A stretch of DNA of 64,000 bases, taken from positions 98,571 to 162,570 of the forward strand of contig CAKOKD010000001.1 in assembly GCA_934090935.1 (NCBI GenBank), given 5' to 3'. Shown piece after piece: positions 2,713 through 28,954 of this stretch (the first letter of the stretch is position 1; each line of letters starts with the position of its first letter). Source of the DNA: an uncultured Bacilli bacterium. GTDB lineage: Bacteria > Bacillota_I > Bacilli_A > RF39 > UBA660. The translations under genes and the position numbers were made by a program. The notes beneath the pieces are model-generated. The model was not told where the DNA came from, ran no database searches, and was given only the letters and a program-made list of their open reading frames with translations.

Positions 2713-2732
2713 AAGATGATAGAGGTGTGCAG

Positions 2733-5700
2733 ATGAGGACAAAAGAGGAAATAAAAAAAGTTCCAGAAGTGGAAGGAGTTTCTTTAAAAGAGGCAAAAGA
2801 AATATTAGAAAAAGCTAATATAGAGATAGAAAAAGAAAAAAAGAAATTCAATATATTTGAAAAAAGTGGAAAAGTAATAAAAGTAGAACCAAAAGAGAAA
2901 ACAAAATTAAAAAAGAATGAAAAAGTAGTTTTATATGTAAATGATAGAAGACCAATACTTGTAATAATTCTTTTATTTTTACTATGTGCACTTTTTATGA
3001 TGTTCAGATCAGGAACAATCTCAACACTTATCAATACAACTGCACCAGTAATAGAAAGTAAAACACATGAATGGAGTCAAAGTGTTTTAGTTAATGTAAA
3101 AAAAGATGCAACTATGAAAAACACATTAGATCATTATGAATATTGTGTAACAAGTAGAAAAAATACGATTGGTTGTGTTTGGAGAAAAACAACAACAAAA
3201 AATACAATTGTAAGTAAAACTGGAAAATGGTATGTATATTTCAGAGGTATAGACGAAAAAAATAACAAGAGTAGAGTAAGTAATCGAGAATATGTACTTG
3301 TAGATAATGAAAGTCCAGTTATAAAGGAAATAGAAGTAAAAAATGGAAAAGTAACTATTGATGCAAAGGATAGACATAGTGGAATAGATAAAATATATTA
3401 TAGTTATGATGGAGAAAATTATATTGAAGCAAGTAAAAGTTTTGACATAGACAAATCTACTAAAATAATTTATATAAAAATAGTTGATAAGGCTGGTAAT
3501 GAGATTATTTTAAGCAAAAATGTTGATGATTCAACTTCTTGCGATTTAAACTGCGATACAAATAACGATGGTAAATGTGATTTGAACTGTGATACAGATA
3601 ATGACGGAAAATGTGATTTGAACTGTGATACAGATAATGACGGAAAATGTGATTTGAACTGTGATACAGATAATGACGGAAAATGTGATTTAAACTGTGA
3701 TACAGACAATGATGGAAAATGTGATTTGAACTGTACAAATAATGCTACAACAACTAAGAGTACTACGACTAAAGCATCATCTACAACAACAACCGAATTA
3801 ATTGATAATAAAGTTCCAATTATAAATTTGAATAAAGTTCCATCAAAATTTATATATGGAAGTAAATATGATTTACCAAGTTACTATAAATTTGGACCTA
3901 AGGGTGGAAAAGTTAAGTGCATAGTAGATGGAAAAGATGAAAAAACTGATACAAGTGATTTAGGAATTGGAAAACATAATATTGTTTGTACAGCATATGG
4001 AAATAACGGAATAAATGTAAGAGTATCAAAAATGGTAGAAGTAGATGTTCCAGAAGGAGAAGAGGAAGAATGGGATGGATGGATAAGATTAAATCTTTAC
4101 TATCCAGCTAATTCAACTAATTGGCAATGGAGAATAGGAAAAGATGGTGAAATTCGAGATGGATATGATTTCACTGGTTGGCAAGACTATACAGGACCTA
4201 TACTAGTAAAATTAGAAGATGTAAAAAATGTTTATATAAGATACAATCTTTTAGGAGAAACTTATGTAATAGCTCCAAGTGGTAAAGTAGCCGTTGATAT
4301 TGAACCTTCTGAATATACCATATTAAAAGGAGAAAAGACTAAAGTAAAGATTTATTACGAAAAAGATGCTTTAACTAAAGAGTATAGAGTTGGAGCATCT
4401 GATTGGATGGAATATACAGGTGAATTTGAGGTAGAAGCTAACACTTTAATAGAAGCAAGAAGTACTAAAGAAGAAAGAGTTTATAACTCTGATGGAGAGT
4501 ATTTATATAGTAAGAAAATAAAAGGAAACGATTCAGTATTCATAAGTGAACTCTTAGCACCTCCTGGAGTAAGTATAAATCCAAGCGATAAAAAATATAC
4601 AGGCACTATTGAAGGAGGATATACTGAAGAAGGAAATTCTGAAAGTTCTGGAAAGTATGGGCCAACAGAAAGAGCAGATGGAAGCTATACAACTATTCCA
4701 GATGTTGATTTTAAACCAAGTGAGTATTTAGATGGTCCAATTATATCTGGATCTCCATCATCGACTTTAACTGATAAAGTGAAAATTCAAGTGACAACAA
4801 AAGATGAAGCAGAAGCCATATATGTTCAAGTTGGATATGGTTCTTATTTTGAATATACAGGTGAATTTGAAGTAACTAGTAATACAACCATTTATGCTTA
4901 TTATGTAAGAAAAAGCGATGGTATGATTTCAAGAAGGAGTTATTATCGAGTAAAAAATATAAAATATGGCTATAGACCATATGTAAGAATTGATACCACT
5001 CCTGATTATTTGTCAAGCAATGCAAATGAAGTTATTGCTAAGATTAGTGGAAGTGATTATGATACTTTGGAGTATAGTTTTGATGGATATATTTACCAAA
5101 AATATACTGGAGAAATTAAAGTTACTAGTAGTTGTACTATATACGCAAGAGGAACTAACTCTTATGGAGCAACTGTTGAAAAAGAATACATAACAACTAA
5201 GAATGCTCCTACATCAAAGAAAAACTTAACAATTGAAATATTTGCTGATCCTGTTAAAAGCAATAAATTAGTAAATAAAACTAGAATTAGCATTGATTAT
5301 GATATTAATGCAGAAAAGAAATATTATAAGTTGGCTGGAGAAAGTGAATATAAAGAATATACTGGTCCATTTGAAATAGATGAAAATACAACTATATATG
5401 CATATGCTACAAGTAAAAATGCAGTTGGATATAAAGATAAAGGTATAGATTTTTTAACAACTGGTATAATGGCTCCAATAATAACAGTTAAACCTACAAC
5501 TAATACTAGCATGGTTAAAGTAACTATTGAGTTTGATCAAAATGCTAGTCAAAAGTATTATCAAATAGATAATGGAGAGAAGCTTTATTATACTGGAGAA
5601 TTTGAAATATATAAAAATTCTAATATATATGCATATAATGCAAATACTTTGGGTTATGAAGCATCCTCTTCAAAAGAGATTACAAACGTTAATAAAAATT

Positions 5701-8700
5701 TAAGATATTATGTAATTGATAAAGGAAAGTATTACATAATTAAACTTAATTATCCAAGTGGAGCAAGCGTTAGAGAATATAAGTGGAAAGCAGATGGAAC
5801 TTGGAAAAATTATGATGATATAGGAATACTTCTAATAAAACCAGAATATAAAGACGAATTTAATTTAGACGGTTACGATGGAATAAAGGTTCAAGATGAG
5901 TATGGTAAAGATGTAATATTTACTGATCATTATTATTTAATAGATGTTCCTTTCAGTAAATTAATGGAAAACTTGTTTATGAGATGGGATAGAACAAAAC
6001 CATCAGCTCCTGATATAATGATTGAACCTGAGGATGAAACTTCTAGGGAAGTGAAAGTAATTATTAATTATAGTAAGACTTTAGAAAAGAAATATTATAA
6101 ATTAGTAAATGAAGGTGGGCAAAGTACAGGTTGGATGGAATATACAGGACCATTCAATGTATCTAAAAATGGAGTTATTGTTTATGCTAAAGGTGAAACA
6201 TATACTCAAGTGGAAAGCGATATATCTAGTAGAAAAATAACAAATATTGATAATACAGCTCCAGATATAATTGTTAATGGAGATTTAGACTCGCCAAAAC
6301 AAAAAATTAATTTATTTATTCGCGTAGAAGATAAATCAGTTATAGATAGAATAAAGTATGCTAAAGGAAATAAAAATGTAGATTACTTTAAAAATAATGG
6401 TAGTGTCATAGATAACTTTAGTACAATAACCATTGAAGAAAATGATGAATATACGTTCTATGCAATAGATGAGCTTGGCAATGCCGGAGTTAAAATTATT
6501 AATGTAACTAATATAGATAAAGATGCTCCAAATATTGTAATAAATGTGGAAGCAAAGAGTAAGACTATTGAAACAAAAGTTACAATAGATTATGGAGATT
6601 CAAAAGTAAAACTTTATAAAATTGGTGAAAATGGTGAATATAAAGAATATACTGATAAGTTGATATTGAAATCGAGTGATTTATTTAATCTTAAAAATGA
6701 GGATGGAAGTTTAACTATTTATGCAAAAGGTATAGACGAAGCTTTAAATGAATCTATTGTAAAAGAGATAACTTATGTATTAGACTTAGATGAAATAAAA
6801 TCACCTGTTATAAATGTAAGTGATGGATATCCAATGTTAACAAGAGATGGAATGATAGAAGAAAAACAAAGTTATATCTCTTATGATACAAAGGATGATA
6901 TTGAAAATTATTATAAAATAGACGATGGAAAATATGTTTTATATAATGGATCGATAACAATAAAATCAGGTAAAATTACTGCAAGAAGTGAAAGAAAATT
7001 AAGTGGTCAAGTTGTTGAGGTAAGTGCAAATGTAGTTGTTCCAGCAAATTCAATTGGTAAAAACGCTTATGATGGTGATTTACAAACAAGTGAAACAATT
7101 GCAAGAGGTGTAAGTAAATTATTTACAATAAATCCTAATCTTTATGGTGAAAAATTGAAAATATATACGGGTGTTTCTGTATCAAATACATCAACGATTA
7201 AATTGTATGACAAAGATAAAAAATTGTTGAATGAAATACCTACAGTTGCAGTATTAACAATTGCAAATATTGAAGATGGAACTTATTATGTTGAAATAAA
7301 TTCTGGAAGTGGAACCCTAGATGTAAGAGAAATAAGCTTACAAAACGAGAATTTTATTAATGATCTACATACACCTATTATCAGTATAAGTGAAAGCGGA
7401 TGGGCTGCAGAAAAAGTAGCAACAGTAAAATACTATAGTGATGAATATAAAAATGAATACAGTTTAGATAATGGTTCAACATGGTTAGATTATCAAGACC
7501 CTATTAAATTGATTGAACCAACAAATGTAATAGCAAGAACTATAAGAGATGAAAAAGTAATAGGTTCAAGTAACTTTATAGTAACAAAAATTGATACAGA
7601 AGAGCCTGTTATTGAATTGAATATTGGTAACAAAATTCAATTGGGATATGACAAAAATATTCCAACATATTATAAAGAGACTCCATCAGGAACTAATGTA
7701 GAATGTAGAGATGGAAATGAAGTAGTAACAAATACAAGTGAATTAAAACTTGGAAAGCATAGCATTGTATGTACGGCAACAACGGGTGTTGGAAGAAAAG
7801 TAAGTGTGGAGAAAAAAATTGAAATTGTTGAGGCACATGATTTTGAATCCGATAGCATTTTAGCAGCAATAGCCGATAAAGATATAATAACTGGAAAATA
7901 TAAGATACAAGTAAATGATGAAGTATATTCAGTTCATGTAGTAACATATGATGAAAATCAACATTTTACTGAAAATCAAACATTTGGAGATGCAAAAGAT
8001 GTAGCAACAGCTGATGACTATGCTCAAAATATGGTAATAGTAAAAATAAATGGAGATTTAGAAATAGATTCAGGAGTAACAGTAGCACCATATTATGATG
8101 AAACATATGGAGGACCAAAAGGTTTCATGTTATATGTAACAGGAAAGTTAACAAATAATGGAACAATAGATAATTCACACGGAGCATATGCGGAAGGCCA
8201 AAATGTATACTTATGGAAGAATACTGATGGTTCTTATGAATATGTACCAGCAGAAGGAGCTGTTGGAAACAGCATTGCTGGTGTTGGAAGAATGACTGGA
8301 TCTGGTGGTGGTGGATCTGCATATGGTGGTACTCCAGGATCAGGTGGATCAGGAACTAGCTATTCTGGAGGAACCGGAGGAGGCGCATCTCACCACGGAA
8401 GTGCAAGTTCAGGAGCAGCTTTTGGAGGAGCTGGAGGTTATGGTTCTACATCTAATTGTACTTTTGCCTGCGGAGGCGGAGCTGGAAATCCAGGTGGAGC
8501 TGGAGCTTGTGGACCAAATGGTGCAAATGGGACTGGTGGATTATTAATAATATATTCAGATACTTATATAAATAAAGGAATTGTATCATCTCATGGATAT
8601 TCTGGTGGAATAGGCGGATCTGTTGGCGAAGGCGGAGGAGGATCTGGTGGAGGTTCTATTAATATTTTTATTAATCAAAATACTGTACTAAATCAGGAAG

Positions 8701-11699
8701 ATTCAACATTATCTACAGATACGCACTATTATGAAATATTAGGGAATCATGATAAAAATGGCGGCGCTGCATCTAGTGGTTATGGATATGGAGGAGCCGG
8801 AGGAACTGGTACAATAACTATTGGTGAGATTAGAAATAAAAAGTATTACGATTTAACTGACATAATTGAGCAAGATAAAGAAAAATACATTGAGAGTGTA
8901 ACAATAAAAGGAGAAAGTATCTTAAGTATATTAAATGACAATAGTTTAAATTCAGGATATTACTATTTTGCAGTTAACAATGAAACATATCCCGTTCATA
9001 TCTATACATTAAGTGGAAATCAACACTTTACTGAAAATCAGACATTTGGGGATGCAAAAGATGTAGCAACATCCGAAGATTATGCTCAAAATATGGTAAT
9101 AGTAAAAGTAAATGGAGATTTAGAAATAGATTCAGGAGTAACAGTAGCACCATACTACGATGCAACATACGGAGGACCAAAAGGATTCACATTATATGTA
9201 ACAGGAAAATTAACAAATAATGGAACAATAGATAATTCACATGGAGCAAAAGCTGAAGGCCAAAATGTATACTTGTGGAAGAATACTGATGGGTCTTATG
9301 AATATGTACCAGCAGAAGGAGCTGTTGGAAACAGCGTTGCTGGTGTTGGAAGAATGACAGGTTCAGGTGGAAGAGGTTCTGCATATGGTGGTTCTCCTGG
9401 CTCCGGAGGACCAGGAACAAGTTACTCTGGAGGACCAGGTGGAGGCGCATCTCATCACGGAGGCGCAAGTTCAGGAGCAGCTTTTGGAGGAGCTGGAGGT
9501 TATGGCTCTACATCTAATTGTACATTTGGATGTGGTGGAGGAGCTGGAAATCCAGGTGGAGCTGGAGTTTGCGGTTCAAATGGATCAAATGGAACTGGAG
9601 GATTATTAATAATATACTCAAATAGTTATGTAAATAATGGAACTATATCATCTCATGGATATTCAGGTGGCTATGGCGGACCAGTCGGAGAAGTTGGTGG
9701 TGGCTCCGGCGGAGGTTCAATAAATATATTTACAATGCAATTGATTAATTCTCTTGGAAATTATTTGAAAAATGGTGGCGGATCTGGAGGAGCTGGTACA
9801 ATAACTTACACTCAATTACAACCAGTAAGCTTTACATTTAACTATACTACACCAAACTTAACTGAATCAAAATTTGAAAAAGAAAAAATAAATATAATAA
9901 TCAATTATTTATCAACATTAACTAAAAAATTATATAGTTTAGATAATGGAACAACATGGTTAGAATATAAAGGTTCATTTGATGTAGAAGCAAATACAAA
10001 AATACTAGCAAAAGGAATAAAAGCAGATAAAACAGAAACTGATGTAGTAACATATGAAGCTCAAACACAAAATGGAATACCATATGAAACAATAGATGAA
10101 AATGAAGAAACAAAAGCAGTGTTAGAAGCAAATAAAGAATATGTATTTACAATAGAAGAAAAATTAAAAAATAGAAAAATAAGATTCTATTTAGAAAATG
10201 AAGCATCAAATGATGCAAGTATAAAAGTATATGATAAAAATAGTACAGAATTATTATCTACAACATTTGTTAATAACTTAACAGTTATCAACATTCCAGA
10301 AGAATCATATAAATTTGTAATAACTGGTGGAAGTGAAAACTTAGAGATAAGTGAAATAAACTTAAAAGAGAGAATAGAAGTAAATAAAAATATACCAGAG
10401 ATAAAAATAAACGATACAAACTGGACAAGCAGTAAAACAATCGAGATATCATATTCAGAAGGATATAAAAATGAATATAGTTTAGATCTAGGAGAAAACT
10501 GGATAGAATATGAAGAACCAATAGTTATAGAAGAAGAAAAGATAATACTTGCAAGAAGTCTAGAAGATGATAAAGTTGTTGGAAGCAGTAGTTATGTAAT
10601 AACAAGTGTTGATAATGTAGAACCAACAATAGAAATGGATATACCAGATGAAGTAACTCAAAATGATAGTTATGAAATACCTACAAAATCAACATTTGGA
10701 AAAAGCGAAGGAACAGTTATTTGTAAAGTAAATGATAAAGAAATTAAAAATACAAATGAACTAGAAGACGGAGAAAACACGATAACTTGTATAGCAACAA
10801 GTGGAAGTGGAAAAACAACTGAGATAAGTAAAACAATAACTTTAGTAAAAGTAAGCTCATTAAAAGATACAATAATGAGTAGAGAAATAATAACAACAGA
10901 ACCAACACTTACAACATCAAGTAATAATACAGAAGATGTAAGCGGATTATATAAATCAACAGAAACGAATTCAGGAGAACCAACATATTACTTTAGAGGA
11001 GACGTTCAAGATAACTATGTAAGTTTTGCTGGACAAACATGGAGAATAGTAAGAATCAATGAAGATGGAACAATAAGATTAATAATGCAAGATGGAATAA
11101 ACAATAATCAAGCATATGCATTTAACTTGAAATATGATGATTATTCATACATGTATTATTCCAACAGTGAAGCAAAAACAGCATTAGAAAACTGGTATAA
11201 TACCAATATAGAAAACAATGAAACTTATTCAAAACAAGTTGCAACTGGAGCATATTTCTGTGAACAAGCTAAAGTTAAATATAATTCTAATTATACATCT
11301 GGAGCTGCTACAATGACAGTTTATACAAGTTATACTCCAAACTTTAAGTGTGAGACAGATGGTAATGGTAAAGGAATAGTTAATTCAAATATAGGATTGA
11401 TTACTTATGATGAAGCTGTTTATGCAGGTGGTTATTTTTTACAAAGTAACAATAATTATTATTTATATACTACACCTAGCCTTTCATGGACAATGAGTCC
11501 TTCTGGAGTTTATGATTATATTTCAAATGTAGGTGACATAGCTATATATTTTAGTGGGGATATAGGAGATCATTATATTAGTTACGATCATGATTCTACC
11601 GGTAAATACCCTAATATTTTAAGACCAGTAATAAATTTAAAAAGTGATGCACAAATAAGTGGTTTAGGTACAATAGATGATCCATATGTGGTAAAATAA
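2733..11699 (+). CDS. Giant (~2990 aa) cell-surface protein. It has an N-terminal TM anchor, about 10 Fn3-like CHB_HEX_C-type repeats, TSP3-like Ca-binding CDLNCDTDNDGK repeats, a duplicated ~330-aa glycine-rich module and a C-terminal ~290-aa globular domain.
   Basis: A single 9 kb ORF. A lysine/glutamate-rich N-terminus is followed by the hydrophobic helix RPILVIILLFLLCALFMMF. The recurring motif Y..Y.EYTG.FEV..NTTIYA is seen directly in the translation. The C-terminal domain (YYFRGDV...WRIVRI...GLITYDEAVYAGG...RPVINL) is possibly lectin-like; that is my inference only. Confidence 0.8.
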   Translation: MRTKEEIKKVPEVEGVSLKEAKEILEKANIEIEKEKKKFNIFEKSGKVIKVEPKEKTKLKKNEKVVLYVNDRRPILVIILLFLLCALFMMFRSGTISTLINTTAPVIESKTHEWSQSVLVNVKKDATMKNTLDHYEYCVTSRKNTIGCVWRKTTTKNTIVSKTGKWYVYFRGIDEKNNKSRVSNREYVLVDNESPVIKEIEVKNGKVTIDAKDRHSGIDKIYYSYDGENYIEASKSFDIDKSTKIIYIKIVDKAGNEIILSKNVDDSTSCDLNCDTNNDGKCDLNCDTDNDGKCDLNCDTDNDGKCDLNCDTDNDGKCDLNCDTDNDGKCDLNCTNNATTTKSTTTKASSTTTTELIDNKVPIINLNKVPSKFIYGSKYDLPSYYKFGPKGGKVKCIVDGKDEKTDTSDLGIGKHNIVCTAYGNNGINVRVSKMVEVDVPEGEEEEWDGWIRLNLYYPANSTNWQWRIGKDGEIRDGYDFTGWQDYTGPILVKLEDVKNVYIRYNLLGETYVIAPSGKVAVDIEPSEYTILKGEKTKVKIYYEKDALTKEYRVGASDWMEYTGEFEVEANTLIEARSTKEERVYNSDGEYLYSKKIKGNDSVFISELLAPPGVSINPSDKKYTGTIEGGYTEEGNSESSGKYGPTERADGSYTTIPDVDFKPSEYLDGPIISGSPSSTLTDKVKIQVTTKDEAEAIYVQVGYGSYFEYTGEFEVTSNTTIYAYYVRKSDGMISRRSYYRVKNIKYGYRPYVRIDTTPDYLSSNANEVIAKISGSDYDTLEYSFDGYIYQKYTGEIKVTSSCTIYARGTNSYGATVEKEYITTKNAPTSKKNLTIEIFADPVKSNKLVNKTRISIDYDINAEKKYYKLAGESEYKEYTGPFEIDENTTIYAYATSKNAVGYKDKGIDFLTTGIMAPIITVKPTTNTSMVKVTIEFDQNASQKYYQIDNGEKLYYTGEFEIYKNSNIYAYNANTLGYEASSSKEITNVNKNLRYYVIDKGKYYIIKLNYPSGASVREYKWKADGTWKNYDDIGILLIKPEYKDEFNLDGYDGIKVQDEYGKDVIFTDHYYLIDVPFSKLMENLFMRWDRTKPSAPDIMIEPEDETSREVKVIINYSKTLEKKYYKLVNEGGQSTGWMEYTGPFNVSKNGVIVYAKGETYTQVESDISSRKITNIDNTAPDIIVNGDLDSPKQKINLFIRVEDKSVIDRIKYAKGNKNVDYFKNNGSVIDNFSTITIEENDEYTFYAIDELGNAGVKIINVTNIDKDAPNIVINVEAKSKTIETKVTIDYGDSKVKLYKIGENGEYKEYTDKLILKSSDLFNLKNEDGSLTIYAKGIDEALNESIVKEITYVLDLDEIKSPVINVSDGYPMLTRDGMIEEKQSYISYDTKDDIENYYKIDDGKYVLYNGSITIKSGKITARSERKLSGQVVEVSANVVVPANSIGKNAYDGDLQTSETIARGVSKLFTINPNLYGEKLKIYTGVSVSNTSTIKLYDKDKKLLNEIPTVAVLTIANIEDGTYYVEINSGSGTLDVREISLQNENFINDLHTPIISISESGWAAEKVATVKYYSDEYKNEYSLDNGSTWLDYQDPIKLIEPTNVIARTIRDEKVIGSSNFIVTKIDTEEPVIELNIGNKIQLGYDKNIPTYYKETPSGTNVECRDGNEVVTNTSELKLGKHSIVCTATTGVGRKVSVEKKIEIVEAHDFESDSILAAIADKDIITGKYKIQVNDEVYSVHVVTYDENQHFTENQTFGDAKDVATADDYAQNMVIVKINGDLEIDSGVTVAPYYDETYGGPKGFMLYVTGKLTNNGTIDNSHGAYAEGQNVYLWKNTDGSYEYVPAEGAVGNSIAGVGRMTGSGGGGSAYGGTPGSGGSGTSYSGGTGGGASHHGSASSGAAFGGAGGYGSTSNCTFACGGGAGNPGGAGACGPNGANGTGGLLIIYSDTYINKGIVSSHGYSGGIGGSVGEGGGGSGGGSINIFINQNTVLNQEDSTLSTDTHYYEILGNHDKNGGAASSGYGYGGAGGTGTITIGEIRNKKYYDLTDIIEQDKEKYIESVTIKGESILSILNDNSLNSGYYYFAVNNETYPVHIYTLSGNQHFTENQTFGDAKDVATSEDYAQNMVIVKVNGDLEIDSGVTVAPYYDATYGGPKGFTLYVTGKLTNNGTIDNSHGAKAEGQNVYLWKNTDGSYEYVPAEGAVGNSVAGVGRMTGSGGRGSAYGGSPGSGGPGTSYSGGPGGGASHHGGASSGAAFGGAGGYGSTSNCTFGCGGGAGNPGGAGVCGSNGSNGTGGLLIIYSNSYVNNGTISSHGYSGGYGGPVGEVGGGSGGGSINIFTMQLINSLGNYLKNGGGSGGAGTITYTQLQPVSFTFNYTTPNLTESKFEKEKINIIINYLSTLTKKLYSLDNGTTWLEYKGSFDVEANTKILAKGIKADKTETDVVTYEAQTQNGIPYETIDENEETKAVLEANKEYVFTIEEKLKNRKIRFYLENEASNDASIKVYDKNSTELLSTTFVNNLTVINIPEESYKFVITGGSENLEISEINLKERIEVNKNIPEIKINDTNWTSSKTIEISYSEGYKNEYSLDLGENWIEYEEPIVIEEEKIILARSLEDDKVVGSSSYVITSVDNVEPTIEMDIPDEVTQNDSYEIPTKSTFGKSEGTVICKVNDKEIKNTNELEDGENTITCIATSGSGKTTEISKTITLVKVSSLKDTIMSREIITTEPTLTTSSNNTEDVSGLYKSTETNSGEPTYYFRGDVQDNYVSFAGQTWRIVRINEDGTIRLIMQDGINNNQAYAFNLKYDDYSYMYYSNSEAKTALENWYNTNIENNETYSKQVATGAYFCEQAKVKYNSNYTSGAATMTVYTSYTPNFKCETDGNGKGIVNSNIGLITYDEAVYAGGYFLQSNNNYYLYTTPSLSWTMSPSGVYDYISNVGDIAIYFSGDIGDHYISYDHDSTGKYPNILRPVINLKSDAQISGLGTIDDPYVVK
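3539..3735 (+). repeat. Perfect in-frame 36-nt tandem repeat of about 5.5 copies, encoding CDLNCDTDNDGK (thrombospondin-type-3-like Ca-binding motif).
   Basis: The unit tgtgatttgaactgtgatacagataatgacggaaaa is repeated identically three times. Degenerate copies flank it. Confidence 0.9.
7900..9810 (+). repeat. Two ~0.95-1 kb near-identical direct repeats inside the giant gene: the glycine-rich module duplicated in tandem, separated by ~130 nt.
   Basis: The aa segments HFTENQTFGDAKDVAT...GGGSGGGSINIF occur twice. Long stretches are nucleotide-identical, for example cattttactgaaaatca...gatgcaaaagatgtagcaaca. Confidence 0.85.
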
Positions 11700-12164: not shown

Positions 12165-12194
12165 TGCAAAAAAAATAAAGACGAAAAGTCTTTA
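12156..12194 (-). terminator. Intrinsic terminator for the convergent HerA-like gene.
   Basis: On the minus strand, AAAGAC-ttttc-GTCTTT is followed by ATTTTTTTT. Confidence 0.65.
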
Positions 12195-13952
12195 TTGATA
12201 CCAAATTTTATCTATTTTAATTGATGTAGATACTGGCATTGGATTTGGAAGTGGGAATTTTACTAGAAGTGGAACTTTGAAAGCTGTACCAAATACAAGT
12301 CCCATACCAGGTTTTAATGTTTTTATTTTCTCTAGTGTTTCATCAGTAACGTTTGATGAAATACCTTTTACTATCTCTAGATCTTCTGGATAGAAAAGTC
12401 TAAATACAACGAAGTTAGAACATTGAGATAATGCTGTTTTAGATAACTCATTTGGTCTTTGAGTAACAAAACCTAAAATAGTTCCATATTTTCTTCCTTC
12501 TTTTGTTATTCTATCAAATATATTGTATCCTAAAACACTTATATCTGAATCATTTTGTACGTATCTATGTGCTTCTTCTAATATTATATGTATTGGATAT
12601 GTTCCTCTATCCTGTAAACTTGTTGTATGTTCAAAGAATACTCTTGAGAATATCTTTGTTAAACATTTAGCAAATGAATCTTCAATAAATGATAGATTGA
12701 CATCAACCAATTGAACGTTTTCTCCATTTGGACCAGTTTTAAAGAATTCTTCAACAAATTCAGCTCTGGATACATATCTATCAAATTTAAAGAATTCATT
12801 TTTATCACTGTTGATGATGGATTGTAGTCTTGATTTTAAAATGTTGTTTTTATCAAATGCTGATTCACTTGTTAATATTCCTTCACTTATTAGAGCAAAC
12901 TCTAATGCATAATATAGATCACTTAAAGTATAAGTTATATTTTCATCTAAAGTTACATTGATATCAACTTTTATATATGTTTGTAAAAAATTAATAACTA
13001 AAGCAAGGGCATTTATTTTACCTTGATCATCGATATTTAAACATTGTCTTAATGTTCTTTCATATCCAGGTTGTCTTATCTTTGAATCCAAATTTATATC
13101 ATCAGTATGATAAGTTGTAAGTATTGATATAACTTGATCTCTTATTTGAGTTGCATTTTTTCCACTTGATAAAATATCAAGCACGGTTTTCGCTATTATA
13201 TCGTTTTTATAGTCAACTGATTTAGGATCTGTTGAACAAAATATCTTTACTAGATCTATGGATTTTGCAAGTATAGGAAGTTGAGATGCATCCTTAACTC
13301 CTAGAAGGATTGCAAGATCATCAACAGTTAAAAGATATGCTGGAATTGTTAGAAGAGATGCATCTCCAAAACGTATCTCAGTTGTATATCTTTTAAAGTG
13401 AAGGCCTACAAATTTATCCATCTCATTAAAAGTGTTGTAATATTCTCCATATACATCGAATAAACACATATGAGCATTTATTGGAATTTTTCCATTTGCT
13501 GTAAAGAAGACGTTTTGTATCAATCTAGAAAGACCACAACTTTTACCAGATCCAGTGTTTCCAATAACCGCGAAATGGTTTGCAAAGAATTCATTGATGT
13601 TTGATGTTATCATGTATTCCTTATATATTGGAGATGTACCTATAAGCAAGTTGCTTCTATTTGATAAGTCTTGATTTCCTAAAATAAGTTCAAGCTCGGA
13701 TTTATAAATAATTCTTGCTATTGCACTTGCTCCTGGTTTTTTCATAACACCGTTAGCGAATACTCCATCAACAATTTCACCAATAAGTTGAATCGCGATA
13801 TATTCCTTGTTTATTTCAATTATTTCTCCAACTATTTTATGTGATTTTTCTTCAAATACAACATGAAAACCGATGTAATTAGTATCAGCTATATGTTTTA
13901 TATTTTCAACATATATAACTGATTTTTCAAATTTAATTATATTACCAAACAT
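12192..13952 (-). CDS. HerA/FtsK-like DUF87 ATPase, stand-alone.
   Basis: Walker A GNTGSGKS. Walker B with catalytic Glu (IHIILEEAHRY). An arginine-finger TQRP motif (GFVTQRPNELS). An N-terminal barrel-like region. Confidence 0.7.
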   Translation of the reverse strand: MFGNIIKFEKSVIYVENIKHIADTNYIGFHVVFEEKSHKIVGEIIEINKEYIAIQLIGEIVDGVFANGVMKKPGASAIARIIYKSELELILGNQDLSNRSNLLIGTSPIYKEYMITSNINEFFANHFAVIGNTGSGKSCGLSRLIQNVFFTANGKIPINAHMCLFDVYGEYYNTFNEMDKFVGLHFKRYTTEIRFGDASLLTIPAYLLTVDDLAILLGVKDASQLPILAKSIDLVKIFCSTDPKSVDYKNDIIAKTVLDILSSGKNATQIRDQVISILTTYHTDDINLDSKIRQPGYERTLRQCLNIDDQGKINALALVINFLQTYIKVDINVTLDENITYTLSDLYYALEFALISEGILTSESAFDKNNILKSRLQSIINSDKNEFFKFDRYVSRAEFVEEFFKTGPNGENVQLVDVNLSFIEDSFAKCLTKIFSRVFFEHTTSLQDRGTYPIHIILEEAHRYVQNDSDISVLGYNIFDRITKEGRKYGTILGFVTQRPNELSKTALSQCSNFVVFRLFYPEDLEIVKGISSNVTDETLEKIKTLKPGMGLVFGTAFKVPLLVKFPLPNPMPVSTSIKIDKIWYQ

Positions 13953-18197: not shown

Positions 18198-19907
18198 TTA
18201 TCTTTTTTGTAATTGTTGATAATATTTGTTATGTTTCATTAAATGTTCATGTGAACCAATTCCCACCAATCTTCCATGGTCAATTACAATTATTTCATCG
18301 GCCATTTTCATCAGTTCTGGTTTATGAGTAATCATTAAAACTGTATGATCTTTTTTTAAATCCATTAAAATATCTAATATTTGTTTTGAAGTATTCATAT
18401 CTAAAGATGATGTTACTTCATCAAATAGAAGTATCTCTGATCTTGATAATAGAGTTCTTGCAAGTGCAATTAATTGTTTTTGACCAGTAGATATATTTTC
18501 AGCATCTCCAAATAATTTAGTGTTATATCCATCCTTTAAGCTCATTATATAGTCGTGCACTCCAGCTCTTTTACAAGCCTCAATTTGATTTTTTCTATTG
18601 GAATCGATTAAAGACAAATTATCTTTTATACTCATGTCAAATATAAATGGTTTTTGAGTAACAATTGCTACATTACTAGAATATACTTCTTTAGAATAAT
18701 CATAAATGCTTTCATTATCTATTAATATTTCACCTTTATTTGCTTTGTATAGTCTTAAAAGAAGTCTAAATATAGTTGATTTACCTGATCCACTTTTTCC
18801 AACAATGGCTGTAAATGATCTAGGTGGAATTTTAAAACTGACATTTTTCATAGTTTGTTGTTTTTCATAGGTGAATGAAACATGTTTAAATTCTATCTCT
18901 CCATTTATGTCATCGTTTTTATTTTCGCCGAAGTTCAGCATATTCTTTGTTTTATAGTTTAACACGTTGAATGCTCGATCAACACGGGTTGAATTTGCTG
19001 ATATGTTATCCAAGCAATCATATAAATTTTCAAATTTTGTTTGAATATTTTCATAATAACCTATTACTAATACTAGTGTTGCAACATCATATTTTCCATT
19101 TAATATCAAGTATATAAGAATTAAATATATAAGAATTTTTCCGAAACCCAATATGGTTGGAACTAAAACATAGATGTGATCTTCATAATTTCTTTTGATA
19201 AAATAGCTTTTCTTCCATTTCTTTTTATAATCGTTTAAATAAGATTTTATATCCTCTTTCATATTAAATGATTTTATCTCTTTATTTCCATCCAATACTT
19301 GACCCATAAGACCAGAGATGTTATCCTCATACTTCCTTTGACGAGTTAAATTATAATCTCTTTTAATCATATTTTTATTTAGAGCATATAAAGATAAAAT
19401 GTTTAAAATAATTGTTGAAATGCCTATATAGATATTTACATTAGATAGAATAATTAAGGCAATTACAATCGTGATAAATTCAGTGATGCTATCAAATAAT
19501 TGATCAGGTATCTGCATGATTTCCCCAACATCTTTAAATGATGTGTTTATTATATATGGAACTGAAATCGTTTTAGTGAAATTTTCATCATAAGTGGTTA
19601 CTTTATCCATTATCAACTTTTGTAATTTGTTATGAGTATATAAAGAGTTGTTTTTATATGATACATAATTGTAATGATGACATAAAGTATAGAAAAGACT
19701 GGATATTAAGTAAATTAAAGCATATATTCCTGCCATTTTATAATCTGTTTTGGTAGCATATTCAATTATTTTAGCTGCGAAATAGGGAATAAGTAAAAAT
19801 GATGTGTTACTAAGGAGAGCAGAGATGAATAAGTGGATTAAACATTTCTTATTATTTGCGCCTAATGAAAAGTATTTTTTGACAATTAAGTAATATTTTT
19901 TAATCAT
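18198..19907 (-). CDS. ABC exporter, fused permease-ATPase, the second subunit of a heterodimer.
   Basis: Six-TM N-terminus. Walker A GKSGSGKST, signature ISTGQKQ, Walker B LLFDE. The likely start MIKKYY overlaps the upstream gene's stop. Confidence 0.85.
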   Translation of the reverse strand: MIKKYYLIVKKYFSLGANNKKCLIHLFISALLSNTSFLLIPYFAAKIIEYATKTDYKMAGIYALIYLISSLFYTLCHHYNYVSYKNNSLYTHNKLQKLIMDKVTTYDENFTKTISVPYIINTSFKDVGEIMQIPDQLFDSITEFITIVIALIILSNVNIYIGISTIILNILSLYALNKNMIKRDYNLTRQRKYEDNISGLMGQVLDGNKEIKSFNMKEDIKSYLNDYKKKWKKSYFIKRNYEDHIYVLVPTILGFGKILIYLILIYLILNGKYDVATLVLVIGYYENIQTKFENLYDCLDNISANSTRVDRAFNVLNYKTKNMLNFGENKNDDINGEIEFKHVSFTYEKQQTMKNVSFKIPPRSFTAIVGKSGSGKSTIFRLLLRLYKANKGEILIDNESIYDYSKEVYSSNVAIVTQKPFIFDMSIKDNLSLIDSNRKNQIEACKRAGVHDYIMSLKDGYNTKLFGDAENISTGQKQLIALARTLLSRSEILLFDEVTSSLDMNTSKQILDILMDLKKDHTVLMITHKPELMKMADEIIVIDHGRLVGIGSHEHLMKHNKYYQQLQKR

Positions 19908-21642
19908 TATCAAACACCCCAATTCTACTTGGTGATTTTCTTGATTGTAGCATCTTGTATATATCATTTCTTTCAATCAATTCTTTATGAGTACCAATAT
20001 CAACAATTCTTCCATTGTCTAAAACAACGATTTTATCAGCGATTTTCATTAAATCTGGTTTTTTAGTGATCATTAAAATTGTTCTTTCCTTTTTCAAATT
20101 ATCGACTAACTTTGGAACTTGCTTTGCTGTACTTGGATCTAATGATGTAGTTACATCATCTAAAAGTAAGACCTCAGCATCAGATAGAATTGTTCTAGCA
20201 ATAGATATCATTTGTTTTTGACCTCCAGAGATATTGATTCCATTTTCTCTTAGTTTTGTGTTATATCCTTTTGGTAAACTCTCAATAAAATCATGAATAC
20301 CGGCTTTTTTACAAGCATCAATTTGATTTTCAATATTTGTATCTACAAAGTTAAGATTTTTTCTAATGCTTGTATTAAATATAAATGGTTTTTGATTGGC
20401 AACTGAAACATTATGGGAATAAATCTCTTTAGAAAAATCATAAATATTTATATTATCTATTTTAATAGTTCCTTTTGTTGGTTTATAAAGTCTTAGAAGA
20501 AGATTGAATATCATTGTTTTACCAGAACCAGCACTTCCTACTATAGCAACAACTTCATTATGATTTATTTTTAAATTTATATTATGTAATATCTCTTTAT
20601 CTTTAATGTTTAAAGAGACATTTTTAAATTCAACTATTCCAAATATGTCGTCAGTATTGTTATCACCAAACTGAATTTCATTTGAATTATAGTTTAGGAT
20701 ATCATTGACTCGATTAACCGATGTATTTGTTTTTCTTATAGCGCCAGTACATTCAATTAGATAGTTTATATAGTTAACTAATGATTCATGATAGGCAATG
20801 ATTAAAACAAGTGCACTTATATTCATCTTTTCAAGATATATTAAAAGAAGTAAGAATAGGTATAGAATAAATCTAAACGTATAAGTTATAACTTTTACAT
20901 CATTATCTCTTAATGTTGTGTACATTCTTTTGTTTGTATAGTCCTTTGTGAATTTATTTTGAATGGTATTCAATTTGTTTTTTAACTTTGGTAACATATT
21001 AAATGTTTTTATCTCTTGAAGACCAGAGACAATTTGCATAAGTAAAGAGCTATATCTATCATCTTGAATATAAACTTTATTATGATAATAATTTATCTTT
21101 TTGTCGAAGTTGTTTCTAAGTTTTATATATAGAATAGAAAATACTACTAGTATTAGTGATATGTAGATATTATAGAAGGAAACAATAATAAGTACAGCTA
21201 GTATTTCTAAGATTCCTAATAATACTTCTGCTATACGATCATTCATATCACCGATTTCAGTTATATCTGTGTTGATAGAGTTCATAAGTCTTCCTTTGCT
21301 TATCATTCTAGTAAAAGAGTTATCAACGGATATCAACTTGTTTAATACTTTTTCCGTTAATTTGTCGTAGCAATAGCTTACATTATATCTATATATTTTA
21401 TAATTTGCATAAAGAGCCACAGTATATAAAATGTAAGTTATAAAAAAAGCGATTAAGGCAATATATGTTGATTGTGCATCACCTATAGTTAAATATTTAA
21501 TTATAAGGGATGCAATGAATGGAAGTAGAATAGATAAACTTTTATAAAAAAATGCTGTTAAAAAATTTATAGTTAAATATAATGGCTTTAGCTCTGCTAA
21601 TTTTAAATAATCTTTAATGAAATTGTAATACTCTCTTATCAT
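19900..21642 (-). CDS. ABC exporter, fused permease-ATPase, the first subunit.
   Basis: GSAGSGKT, ISGGQKQ, LLLDD. Confidence 0.85.
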   Translation of the reverse strand: MIREYYNFIKDYLKLAELKPLYLTINFLTAFFYKSLSILLPFIASLIIKYLTIGDAQSTYIALIAFFITYILYTVALYANYKIYRYNVSYCYDKLTEKVLNKLISVDNSFTRMISKGRLMNSINTDITEIGDMNDRIAEVLLGILEILAVLIIVSFYNIYISLILVVFSILYIKLRNNFDKKINYYHNKVYIQDDRYSSLLMQIVSGLQEIKTFNMLPKLKNKLNTIQNKFTKDYTNKRMYTTLRDNDVKVITYTFRFILYLFLLLLIYLEKMNISALVLIIAYHESLVNYINYLIECTGAIRKTNTSVNRVNDILNYNSNEIQFGDNNTDDIFGIVEFKNVSLNIKDKEILHNINLKINHNEVVAIVGSAGSGKTMIFNLLLRLYKPTKGTIKIDNINIYDFSKEIYSHNVSVANQKPFIFNTSIRKNLNFVDTNIENQIDACKKAGIHDFIESLPKGYNTKLRENGINISGGQKQMISIARTILSDAEVLLLDDVTTSLDPSTAKQVPKLVDNLKKERTILMITKKPDLMKIADKIVVLDNGRIVDIGTHKELIERNDIYKMLQSRKSPSRIGVFDND

Positions 21643-21911
21643 AAGCTATACTCCTTTTATTATTGTATCATATAATTTTTTATTCGACATTATTTTTATT
21701 TAAAGAAAAACATTAATTGACCGGTAAATATATTAGTAGGAGGTATAGTGAAGGTGAAAACGTTTTTAATAAAATTATAAAAATATGAGAAATTGCTAAT
21801 TTTTTTAAAAAATCACATAAAAAAGGCAATAAAGTTACAAAAAAAACAAAAAAAGTGTTTTTTTTGATAAAAATGTAATATACTATTATTAGAAAAAAGG
21901 AGGAGGAACTT

Positions 21912-23048
21912 ATGAAATTACTAAGGGTAGTAGCTGATAATTTTAAGCTATGTGAAAAGGGATTTGAAATTTCTTTTATTCCAACCGGAAATAAAACTTC
22001 TGAAGATAAAGAGTTTGAATTACAAGAAATTGCTGAAGATCTATTTGTTTTTAATACTTTAGGTATAATCGGAAAAAATGCATCTGGAAAAACTACTTCG
22101 GTTGAATTATTGTCCGTAATATATGATATTTTTTCTAATTTTAGAATTAATAGTTCCAAAAATACATTTAAATTTATTGATAACACGGTAAGCTTAGATA
22201 TAACATTTTTTCATGAAGGTGCAGTTTATAGATACACAACTGACTTGATAAAAAACATTAATTCAGTTGATAGTACATCAGTGTTTTTTAAAAACGAAAA
22301 GCTATATAAAAGAGTATATAAAAAAGCTCATGCAAGAAATATATTTGAATATGATAAATTTGATGAAGTTACTTTTAATGTAAAATTACCTGATGATACA
22401 TCTATGATATATTCTTTATTAAATGATATAACTTTGCGTGGTATATATTGCCCAAGTGATGATTTTATGTATAGAAATTATGCTAATGCATTCAATGTAT
22501 ATAAACTTTTAGATAATAATCTTTTAGTAATAACATCCTTATTAAAAATGTTTGACGAACATCTAAATAACATAGAAATGATTAATGAGAATAAGTATAG
22601 AATAGTTTATGTGAATGGATCCACAAAAGAAGTATCAAATGCTGAATTGTATGAAATCCTATCAAGTGGTACTACAAAAGGGTTTGGTTTGTTTACTTTT
22701 GTGGTGTATTCATTAAGAACAGGAGCAGATTTAATTATTGATGAAATTGAAAATCATTTTCATAAAACTCTAGTTGAAAATTTGGTAAATCTGTATAAGG
22801 ATAAATCTGTTAATAGGAAAAATGCTACATTAATTTTTACTACGCATTATTGTGAAATTCTTGACTTATTTGGTAGAAGCGATAATATTTACATATGTAA
22901 ATATGAGGATGCAATAAAATTAGAAAACATGCATGAAAATTACAAATTTAGAACAGAGTTGTTAAAAAGTAATAAGTTTTATAATAATGAATTTAATACA
23001 AATGTTAGTTATGATGCTTTGATGAACTTCAAAAAAGAACTAATGTAA
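21912..23048 (+). CDS. ABC-type AAA ATPase (AAA_21-like) of a two-gene module.
   Basis: GGAGG RBS. Walker A GKNASGKTT. Signature-like LSSGTTKGF. Walker B/D-loop LIIDEIENHFH. H-loop TTHY. Confidence 0.75.
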   Translation: MKLLRVVADNFKLCEKGFEISFIPTGNKTSEDKEFELQEIAEDLFVFNTLGIIGKNASGKTTSVELLSVIYDIFSNFRINSSKNTFKFIDNTVSLDITFFHEGAVYRYTTDLIKNINSVDSTSVFFKNEKLYKRVYKKAHARNIFEYDKFDEVTFNVKLPDDTSMIYSLLNDITLRGIYCPSDDFMYRNYANAFNVYKLLDNNLLVITSLLKMFDEHLNNIEMINENKYRIVYVNGSTKEVSNAELYEILSSGTTKGFGLFTFVVYSLRTGADLIIDEIENHFHKTLVENLVNLYKDKSVNRKNATLIFTTHYCEILDLFGRSDNIYICKYEDAIKLENMHENYKFRTELLKSNKFYNNEFNTNVSYDALMNFKKELM

Positions 23049-23587
23049 TGAAAATTTTATTGATGTGTGAAGGAACAAATGAAGAAGTAATATTGAATTT
23101 TTTATTAAAAGCTAATGCATTGAATTTTACAAGAGATGATTTAATAGGACGAAGAGTTTATCCAATCAGGCAATTAAGTCATCCAGTGATAAAAACTGAA
23201 TTAAAACATTATGGTAAGCCGGTAAAAGTATATAGAGTGGGTGATAAGCAAACTGATAAGCTTATTATTCCAAAAGATATAAATAATATTGTATTTGATT
23301 CGGAAATATATAAATATTGTACAAAACCGGAGTTAGAAATGTTACTTATATTAAATGAAGGATTAGAAAGAACTTACGAAAAAGTTAAAAGTAACCAATC
23401 ACCAAAAGCATTTGCTAAAAAGAATATAAAATATAATGGTAAGAAATATGATCAATCATCAGAATTTCTAGAAATGTATTATGGCGGTAATCGTGTAATT
23501 TATTTAATAGAAAGTATAAGAAAATATAAAAATTATAAAAAACAACATAGCAAAGATGAACTGTATTTAGCAGATCTATTAAAATAG
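23048..23587 (+). CDS. Small TOPRIM/DUF4276-like partner protein (179 aa).
   Basis: Its start overlaps the upstream stop in TAATG. The N-terminal ILLMCEGTNEEVILNFL resembles the hhhVEGxTEE opening motif of TOPRIM-like DUF4276/OLD-family proteins. Confidence 0.45.
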   Translation: MKILLMCEGTNEEVILNFLLKANALNFTRDDLIGRRVYPIRQLSHPVIKTELKHYGKPVKVYRVGDKQTDKLIIPKDINNIVFDSEIYKYCTKPELEMLLILNEGLERTYEKVKSNQSPKAFAKKNIKYNGKKYDQSSEFLEMYYGGNRVIYLIESIRKYKNYKKQHSKDELYLADLLK

Positions 23588-23679
23588 TAAACCGGGATTT
23601 TTCCTGGTTTTTATTTGTTCTTTTAAGATGCTCTGTAATAAATATTTTTTTCTTTAATAAAGTTATAGTGGTGATAAAC

Positions 23680-27910: not shown

Positions 27911-28954
27911 ATGAATAATTTTGGGAAAAGAGTGGAAACTGATAAAATTATTGATAATGATGGAATGTATTTAACATTAGAAGAATTTAAAAGTACTTTA
28001 GAATATATTGTAGGTTCAATGGTTCCTAATATATCTTCATTAACTGGAATTATGGCAAATAATGTTATGATGTTGTTTCCAGTTTCTATTTTGGAAGTCT
28101 TAAAGAAAAAAATTATTAATATGGAAAATATTGGTTTTTGTAATCTTGGGTTTGTTTATAAAGAAGCTGATGAGGAAGCAATAGTTTCACCAGATTTTGT
28201 TTTTTTGCAAACATTGGAACAAGTAAAAAAAGATCCTAAGCAAGTTGCTGTTTTGCATGATTCCTTAATGTGTAAAATAGGAAAAGATAATTTATCTAAC
28301 ATTGATTTTAAAAGAGTTTACGAAGAATTAAAAAAAGAAAAACGAACTAAATCAAAAGCAACAAAAGGTTTATATAGACTAGAATTTGATTATCCTATTG
28401 AATATTTAAGAGGTGTAGAAGTTTCTTATAAACTAGTTTCAGTGATTGATGAATTTATCTCAGATATTTTAGATTATTTTAGTTATGATTTTGATGAATA
28501 TAGTGATCCTGAATATTTAAAAGTAGAAGATAAAATAGACTCTATGTATCAAAAATGTTCTAAAGAAGATTATTATAAAACTCAAGAAAAAGCTTATGAT
28601 ATGAGAGATAAAGCAAAAGAAGAGGCTTTAGAAAGATATAAAAACAAACTTTTTACTAATCAAAAAATAGCTGTATCAGAACTAGTGAGATTGCTTATAG
28701 ATAAATTGAAATCTAATATTATAGGATATGATTATGAAGAAGCTTCAACTAGAAGAGGATATTTAACTGAACTAGGGTTAGATGAAGTACTTTATTATGC
28801 ACATCCTGCCGATAAACATGATTATGATAGAAGAACTTTCATGATTGAAAATCCATGTGGTCAAGATTATGATGAATATTATGTTGAAAGAGAAGAAAAC
28901 AAAAAAGAAAATAATGATGGAGAAATCACAGTTGTTAGAAAAATTTATATGTAG
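27911..28954 (+). CDS. Hypothetical cytoplasmic protein.
   Basis: The ORF has an RBS. I recognise no motifs. Confidence 0.4.
   Translation: MNNFGKRVETDKIIDNDGMYLTLEEFKSTLEYIVGSMVPNISSLTGIMANNVMMLFPVSILEVLKKKIINMENIGFCNLGFVYKEADEEAIVSPDFVFLQTLEQVKKDPKQVAVLHDSLMCKIGKDNLSNIDFKRVYEELKKEKRTKSKATKGLYRLEFDYPIEYLRGVEVSYKLVSVIDEFISDILDYFSYDFDEYSDPEYLKVEDKIDSMYQKCSKEDYYKTQEKAYDMRDKAKEEALERYKNKLFTNQKIAVSELVRLLIDKLKSNIIGYDYEEASTRRGYLTELGLDEVLYYAHPADKHDYDRRTFMIENPCGQDYDEYYVEREENKKENNDGEITVVRKIYM

Follow-up and report, generated by a model that had tools for sequence, protein, structure and literature searches.

We analyzed a window of 64,000 nucleotides (nt) from an uncultured Bacilli bacterium (GTDB lineage Bacteria; Bacillota_I; Bacilli_A; RF39; UBA660), corresponding to positions 98,571 to 162,570 of the forward strand of contig CAKOKD010000001.1 (assembly GCA_934090935.1). 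Our subject is a pair of adjacent genes in this window, which encode an ATP-binding cassette (ABC) ATPase and a small protein, and which an earlier note had singled out, from the sequence alone, as a candidate two-gene anti-phage module. Both open reading frames (ORFs) were found at the coordinates given there, together with the TAATG overlap and all the motifs it quoted (GKNASGKTT, LSSGTTKGF and LIIDEIENHFH in the ATPase, and ILLMCEGTNEEVIL, aa 3-16, in the small protein). The annotation of the flanks also confirmed a setting between ABC exporters and a cell-wall amidase. Two exporter genes with ABC_membrane and ABC_tran domains lie on the minus strand, arranged divergently from the pair around a single intergenic region, and a gene with Amidase_3 and LysM domains lies downstream. 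The coordinates of the features are collected in Table 1.

The two genes overlap by a single base: the stop codon of the ATPase gene (TAA, 23046-23048) gives its last base to the ATG of the small gene, forming the TAATG at 23046-23050. A Shine-Dalgarno sequence graded as strong, AAGGAGGAGG, is found at 21897-21906, 5 nt upstream of the ATG of the ATPase gene. We found none upstream of the small gene, which is therefore probably translated by coupling to the ATPase gene. A terminator-like hairpin, of which one was found against 0.3 expected in shuffled sequences, would close the two-gene operon. The earlier note had also given the pair its own AT-rich promoter. The upstream region of 269 base pairs (bp) is real, but a scan for sigma-70-like promoters returned 20 sites in it, compared with 19.4 in shuffled sequence, and such a consensus scan is uninformative in DNA of 27% GC. 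The pair is a real, tightly coupled two-gene cassette. Judged by their conservation, neither gene is a chance ORF, since the small protein has 766 homologous clusters (at 90%), the ATPase has 2285 (with AAA_21 in all of them), and the junction is kept in 64 of 68 loci.

Table 1. Features of the gene pair in the window and of one related locus. Positions refer to the window, except where an L number, denoting a contig used for comparison, is given; aa, amino acids.
Feature	Position	Strand	Remarks
Upstream intergenic/regulatory region	21643-21911	+	269 bp, divergent from ABC exporter gene; contains AAGGAGGAGG
ATPase ORF	21912-23048	+	378 aa
Walker A / P-loop GKNASGKTT, aa 54-62	22071-22097	+	G54, N56, A57, G59, K60 invariant (13-sequence alignment)
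ABC signature-like motif LSSGTTKGF, aa 250-258	22659-22685	+	S251, G253, T254 invariant (13-sequence alignment)
Walker B and D-loop region LIIDEIENHFH, aa 274-284	22731-22763	+	D277, E278 invariant (13-sequence alignment)
H-loop T311-H312	22842-22847	+	Invariant (13-sequence alignment)
Small-protein ORF	23048-23587	+	179 aa
Motif 1, C7-E8-G9-x-N11-E12	23066-23083	+	End of strand 3-7, before helix 10-21; E8 as candidate TOPRIM glutamate
Motif 2, D66-K-Q-T-D70	23243-23257	+	End of strand 59-64; candidate metal-binding Asp(s) in place of DxD
Motif 3, C91-T-K-P-E95-L-E97	23318-23338	+	Between strand 82-91 and helix 97-103; candidate second-metal ligands
Intrinsic-terminator-like hairpin and T-run	Hairpin 23589-23610, with T-run to 23620	+	AAACCGGGA-TTTT-TCCTGGTTT
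Segment lost in conspecific strains	~21775-23520	.	~1.75 kb: promoter-proximal region, whole ATPase, small-gene codons 1-157
AAA_21+RloB pair and window-type pair of one species	L054-L061:1-1079 and 6865-8543		Housekeeping genes between

The ATPase matches the Pfam family AAA_21 (1.4e-17), which agrees with the ABC-type ATPase claimed earlier. Its top match in PADLOC is AbiLi (PDLC02335, E = 7.3e-36, 121.8 bits), the best among 23 models of defence ATPases. The second match, to the AriA-labelled PDLC02980 (1.2e-19), has coordinates identical to those of the generic Pfam AAA_21 match, and weaker ones were obtained to PDC-M07A, MAD3, HEC-01A, PtuA and GajA. The search of NCBIfam gave only far-sub-threshold matches to RecF and transporters, and the sequence search of the PDB gave nothing or noise. 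We aligned 13 sequences with identities down to 22%, one of them a bona fide AbiLi encoded on a plasmid of E. coli. Since Walker A, the signature motif, Walker B and the H-loop are all invariant at the residues listed in Table 1, the protein belongs, as an ABC-type ATPase with its catalytic motifs intact, to the AAA15/21 group associated with defence, and AbiLi is its nearest relative. We propose for it the role of a sensor or regulator, as the antitoxin-like partner of the small protein.

The small protein is harder to place. A profile search retrieved 657 cluster representatives among 1.84 billion proteins; no Pfam domain was found among its homologues, and their names in the source databases never go beyond 'hypothetical protein'. 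Its AlphaFold model (pLDDT, the predicted local distance difference test, of 92) matches PH0156, a class 2 OLD, GajA and the Thermus OLD. The OLD-type TOPRIM proteins are the longest structural matches of the model and PH0156 (2P62) is the best. The model of a bona fide RloB matches the same four entries, and PH0156 is reported to be the top HHpred match of AriB, the DUF4435 TOPRIM nuclease of a lactococcal PARIS (PMC11381338). In the topology of the model, strand 1 ends in CEG and leads into helices, a later strand ends in a conserved Asp, and a further strand leads to a C-x-(x)-x-E segment, with which the next helix begins; the C-terminal region beyond it is helical. Between strands 2 and 3, RloB carries an additional helix that is absent from the small protein.

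Across a divergent set of 62 full-length relatives (27-67% identity), only E8, G9, D66, E95 and E97 are invariant, while E12, R41, R63, P94, P119 and Y160 are conserved in at least 90% of the sequences. The invariant E8, directly after strand 3-7, fits the glutamate of TOPRIM strand 1. The canonical TOPRIM DxD was not found; the small protein has D-x3-D instead, and D70 is invariant among close relatives only. Motif 3 is comparable to T506/E508 of the OLD protein of B. pseudomallei (BpOLD) and to the CFE of RloB. Experiments on BpOLD defined its two-metal site, which is made up of the TOPRIM glutamate E400 and, at +4, E404, the aspartates of the DxD, T506/E508 where the helical domain begins, and a catalytic lysine (PMC6755086). 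E8-x3-E12, D66 and T92/E95/E97 fit this site in their order and in their position relative to the secondary structure. Its modelled fold, topology and active-site pattern make it most likely that the small protein is an OLD-type TOPRIM nuclease in reduced form, followed by a helical region, and its proposed role in the pair is that of the effector or toxin.

The two genes are found together in different genomic settings. We found the small gene in 50 species-level genomes, a number that should be taken as a lower bound (~50 of 185,579 species genomes), given that the search patterns were narrow. The carriers are mostly metagenome-assembled genomes of uncultured gut Bacilli/Mycoplasmatota-type bacteria (Candidatus Pelethosoma, Coprosoma, Onthousia and Faecenecus), and others include Coprococcus comes and further Clostridia. 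At every locus with enough upstream sequence, the ATPase gene lies immediately 5' of the small gene, and the identities of the two proteins drop in parallel, from 96/94% to 45/53%. The 1-nt overlap of the window is present in 46 of the 68 junctions, and the remaining overlapping or abutting ones have a 4-nt overlap (11) or abut (7). Two loci, both of metagenome-assembled genomes, have a frameshift, in the ATPase gene of L025 (8860-9998) and in the small gene of L040 (10001-10523), which may reflect decay of the module or an assembly error.

The genes around the pair, on the other hand, equal those of the window in the same species only (L001). Elsewhere its settings include a place between RmuC and RNase R, one following BipA and one ahead of ribosomal protein S16; the neighbours differ in every species, and across the loci no third gene is conserved with the pair. 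Distant versions occur on megaplasmids of Bifidobacterium, with Lar, a YafQ toxin, a methyltransferase and IS200/605 around them, as well as on a megaplasmid of Ligilactobacillus salivarius, adjoining ArdC. The complete pair is also present on 8 viral contigs of IMG/VR, in one case with two large serine integrases as neighbours and an Ant anti-repressor close by, while the search of phage GenBank records gave no match. Defence-type neighbours recur across the loci: an AAA_21+RloB pair, a DRT-like reverse transcriptase (RT), a GajA/OLD-like protein and the PADLOC candidate PDC-M26A. The first of these is found in one species (L054-L061), where a canonical pair of AAA_21 (417 aa) and RloB (201 aa) lies 6 kb from the window-type pair; since they coexist, the two are distinct paralogous systems. 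Altogether, the pair behaves as an accessory module that is portable and moves horizontally.

The RT is encoded at L071:3673-4743, 122 bp upstream of a window-type pair; it has 356 aa and matches the PADLOC models RT (6e-24) and Drt9 (4e-16). This single instance recalls the RT-linked (class 3) OLD and the ATPase-Toprim effectors of retrons.

The pair also varies between strains of the same species. All contigs with an identical amidase carry it, and a wider scan of metagenomes revealed conspecific contigs without it, even though their flanks are ~97-99% identical in protein and 93-95% in nucleotide sequence. In these, a gene of the GGGtGRT family is followed by the amidase after just 200-300 bp. 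We compared three such contigs (L087, L088 and L089) with the window using blastn and base-level alignment. They retain a homologue of window 21687-21790, in the region upstream of the ATPase gene, which is fused at an A/T-rich microhomology to a relic of the small gene, namely its last 22 codons (...KYKNYRKQHSKDELYLADLLKK*), followed by the same terminator. Both ends of the lost segment lie in A/T-rich microhomology. Because the empty strains keep this upstream homologue fused to the 22-codon relic, the alignments indicate that the pair was ancestral and that a deletion of ~1.75 kb removed both genes. The pair is thus dispensable.

The exporter genes (window 18198-21642, minus strand) are a strain-variable block as well, and conspecific contigs exist that are wholly without them. 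Since this block and the pair are missing together in the conspecific empty-site contigs, and diverge from one intergenic region, one could think that the pair is tied to the exporters, for example in immunity to an exported peptide or in its regulation. We consider this very improbable. The exporter block has its own indel boundaries, at ~18205 and ~21687, separate from those of the pair, and the empty strains keep the upstream region and the 3' relic of the pair and nothing of the ABC block. Furthermore, no ABC exporter was found beside the pair in the other ~49 species loci, on plasmids or on viral contigs.

The same intergenic site carries something else in a sister lineage (~87% identity). 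There, between the GGGtGRT gene and the amidase, we found a different cargo (L096:4743-6892), composed of an HTH_3 regulator, a fusion of Peptidase_M78 (ImmA/IrrE) with Fic, and a Gly-rich 150-aa protein with GPGGGLYT repeats. The fusion protein matches CapP (6e-27), PDC-S04, SoFic and RmrA in PADLOC, and a related contig (L094:6660-6900) has short deletion relics of this helix-turn-helix (HTH)/ImmA-Fic module. Because it is seen with the pair, in a deleted state with a relic, and with the alternative HTH/ImmA-Fic cargo, this site is a small hotspot for the turnover of modules of the toxin-antitoxin (TA) or defence type. Among close relatives the pair is hence variable, with deletions in conspecific strains and other cargo in the sister lineage.

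The distribution, the contexts and the strain-level loss led us to reject a housekeeping RecF-like protein: rather than keeping their synteny across the genus, the flanks vary, and conspecific strains have lost the pair. A broader alternative is that the small protein is not a nuclease but an adaptor or regulator built on a TOPRIM-like scaffold, the ATPase acting with an unlinked effector or the pair having a non-immune role, such as DNA repair or nucleoid maintenance in the manner of RecF/RecR. We find this quite unlikely. Five invariant acidic or glycine positions, in sequences that differ as much as the 62 relatives and in the same order as in the two-metal site of OLD, would be hard to explain in a scaffold without catalysis. 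For a role in repair, one would also have to account for a pair that is sporadic among the species genomes, occurs in variable contexts and is deleted in conspecific strains.

The architecture itself is known. ABC ATPases of the AAA15/21 group associated with a TOPRIM nuclease form a supergroup that includes OLD, Gabija, RT-linked systems, PARIS, AbiL and MADS3-4, and whose effectors are of the TOPRIM-Old, DUF4435, RloB or DUF4276 type (PMC11464382). In OLD and GajA the ATPase and the TOPRIM are fused, whereas the window encodes two separate proteins with the same pair of domains and the same fold neighbourhood. Compared with OLD, the TOPRIM part is much reduced, without the canonical DxD and without a match to the TOPRIM-Old profile, although its acidic pattern is compatible with the two-metal site of BpOLD.

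AbiL, from plasmid pND861 of Lactococcus lactis, and RloAB combine an AAA_21 ATPase with RloB (PF13707). The mechanism of AbiL is unknown (PMC13064643). Like AbiL, the window pair consists of two adjacent, co-oriented and overlapping genes with the ATPase first, and its ATPase fits the AbiLi profile. However, a bona fide AbiLi has 451 aa and scores 276.7 bits on the AbiLi model, compared with 121.8 bits for the 378 aa of the window ATPase. The small protein differs more: it is ~25 residues shorter than RloB/AbiLii, has no detectable sequence homology to it, and shows E-x3-E where RloB has E-x4-E, and D-K-Q where RloB has a conserved D-x-E.

PARIS (AriA with AriB/DUF4435) is the only mechanistically resolved two-gene relative. 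Its ATPase is a scaffold that holds the nuclease until a phage protein triggers its release, upon which the nuclease cleaves tRNA (PMC11464382), and the system acts as a type II TA or TA-like abortive infection system (PMC11464382, PMC13064643). Both PARIS and the window pair have an ABC ATPase and a separate TOPRIM nuclease, predicted in the case of the window, both occur on prophages or satellite-like elements, and the entry that best matches the small protein in structure ranks first for AriB in HHpred, yet the small protein is not recognised as DUF4435 (PF14491), the effector of PARIS. As the effector fails the tests for RloB/AbiLii and DUF4435, even if the ATPase passes that for AbiLi, the cassette is not to be filed as AbiL or as PARIS. 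The small protein represents a separate family, whose kinship to RloB and DUF4435 is at the level of the fold only.

Pairs of similar organization were found in Firmicutes by NetFlax, which described AAA (node D29):TOPRIM_OLD pairs in C. algidicarnis (D44) and S. agalactiae 2603V/R (D60, toxin WP_000010056.1, paired with WP_000491711.1) and validated them as TA systems in which the ATPase neutralises a toxic TOPRIM protein (PMC10440598). Like these, the window pair is a bicistronic Firmicutes operon of an ATPase and a small, predicted TOPRIM protein, but the D44 toxin is RloB-like and the small protein of the window is not.

Taken together, we think it probable that the pair is a self-contained accessory operon that joins an AAA15/21 ABC ATPase to a TOPRIM nuclease, working by analogy as an abortive infection system in the style of TA systems. 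What supports this is the obligate pairing, the AbiLi-like ATPase, the OLD-type fold neighbourhood of the small protein, the conservation of its acidic residues, the mobility of the pair, its defence-type neighbours and its loss at the strain level, together with the precedents of PARIS and of the validated AAA and TOPRIM pairs. The mechanism that we propose is drawn by analogy in every functional step. Translational coupling would yield the two proteins in fixed proportion, and the ATPase would oligomerise and keep the small nuclease in check. On sensing a trigger from the phage, or a disturbed host physiology, the ATPase would let the nuclease be released or activated, and the nuclease would then cut nucleic acid by means of a two-metal acidic site (E8/E12, D66 and E95/E97). 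The substrate would be tRNA, as in PARIS, or DNA, as in OLD and Gabija, and the infected cell would be stopped.

The NetFlax results also bear on another explanation, in which the pair is a purely selfish type II TA system, with the small protein as toxin and the ATPase neutralising it, maintained by post-segregational killing and horizontal transfer without a dedicated anti-phage role. AAA and TOPRIM_OLD pairs were validated by neutralisation assays without a demonstrated phage phenotype (PMC10440598), the pair is found on megaplasmids adjoining other TA genes, its two genes are tightly coupled and the deletion strains lost both together. These observations are compatible with defence too, PARIS being both. 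Moreover, within a species the copies on the chromosome are stably fixed and their sites are not mobile, so that addiction there would bring little benefit, and the pair has recurrent defence genes as neighbours and occurs at prophage edges. On balance, addiction alone seems to us unlikely.

The results that weigh against the abortive infection operon that we favour concern above all the nuclease, for which fold, topology and active-site pattern have no counterpart in sequence profiles. Searches of the small protein against Pfam, NCBIfam and PHROGs gave nothing meaningful, and PADLOC gave AbiLii alone, at E = 0.021. When the 62 relatives were scanned singly, none matched the RloB, DUF4276, DUF4435 or Toprim families of Pfam, nor AbiLii of PADLOC at E <= 0.01. 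The DUF4276 profile (PF14103) did not match the small protein at E <= 1 or any of the 62 relatives at E <= 0.01. As a reference for RloB, we took, from an E. coli plasmid of 3.9 kb, an annotated RloB whose gene follows that of an ATPase (PADLOC AbiLii, 3e-21; Pfam RloB, 2.5e-33), collected its homologues and aligned 39 of them. The comparison of the small-protein family with this alignment by hhalign gave a probability of 0.9% (E = 0.06), and an unfiltered cross-search with hidden Markov models gave at most 8.5 bits, compared with 10.3 for reversed sequences. Sequence searches of the PDB with two profiles of the family were empty or returned noise (MEF2/MADS, E ~0.2). The Foldseek search of the PDB was not significant either (best E ~0.1), though GajA ranks first and second. 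Regarding mobility, the GC content is not distinctive as a sign of recent transfer, and we found no hallmark of a mobile element beside it in the window itself.

The negative profile searches, with the protein and with its 62 relatives, place the small protein by sequence outside RloB/AbiLii, DUF4276, DUF4435 and Toprim_4, and so none of the labels DUF4276, Toprim_4 and DUF4435 named in the earlier note found support. Of the TOPRIM/OLD-like small nuclease that it suggested, the structural part stands, through the fold matches, the topology and the acidic pattern, while no sequence method links the protein to a TOPRIM family. The more general proposal, a candidate two-gene module of the defence type, is borne out by a pair that is portable, variable between strains and found near defence genes.

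The sole bridge to RloB is the partner encoded on the L. salivarius megaplasmid, which belongs to the small-protein family (hhalign E = 2e-32) and has a sub-threshold match to RloB (E = 0.011). This 180-aa protein (L052:6124-6666, pBNS11-360kb, WP_095759350.1) is labelled 'N-6 DNA methylase' in RefSeq, which is probably a misannotation.

What is of value here is not the architecture, which will not surprise a specialist, but an effector family unrecognised by Pfam, NCBIfam, PHROGs and PADLOC, its abundance in little-studied gut lineages and the clear view of turnover at the locus. One can go further and suggest, as a proposition for which we see the chances as evenly balanced, that the 179-aa protein represents a fifth family of effectors in ABC-ATPase/TOPRIM systems, beside TOPRIM-Old, DUF4435, RloB and DUF4276, with a minimal TOPRIM of the D-x3-D variant. 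With its dedicated AbiLi-like ATPase, it would then form a distinct anti-phage system that is missed by defence-finding programs, occurs widely, in Bacilli/Mycoplasmatota-like lineages of uncultured gut bacteria, in some Clostridia, on megaplasmids of Bifidobacterium and in prophages, and perhaps has its own trigger and substrate.

Systems of this kind (OLD, Gabija, PARIS and AbiL) constitute a major branch of bacterial immunity that is understood only in part, and to it a family invisible to these databases would now be added. The cluster representatives of this family number in the hundreds and come for the most part from low-GC gut lineages that are poorly studied and whose defence repertoires are under-counted, and a profile for it would improve the annotation of defence in gut metagenomes. 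The 179-aa protein could serve as a convenient, minimal system in which to study the restraint of a TOPRIM nuclease by an ABC ATPase, and its release. The locus, for its part, shows the natural turnover of a single chromosomal site in clean form, the site being seen occupied, deleted with a relic and filled with alternative cargo.

Some other features of the window deserve mention. Upstream of the pair lies a giant ORF of 2990 aa (2727-11699, plus strand). It is followed, at 12192-13952 on the minus strand, by a gene encoding a 586-aa protein that strongly matches HerA of the defence type (PADLOC PDLC04102, E = 4.6e-105; Pfam DUF87). This gene seems solitary, as no partner of the SIR2 or DUF4297 type is visible in its operon, and its neighbours are a 134-aa ORF without matches and a gene of the sulfatase family. 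Downstream of the pair, the window encodes a 347-aa protein without a Pfam family (27911-28954). It is 72-75% identical between conspecifics, compared with 95-99% for the neighbouring genes, which suggests a hypervariable or replaced allele. Finally, one conspecific strain has, 3' of this gene, a large serine recombinase (Resolvase+Recombinase, L063:11475-12999) in place of Mn-catalase/CotJB, which indicates the insertion of a mobile element nearby.

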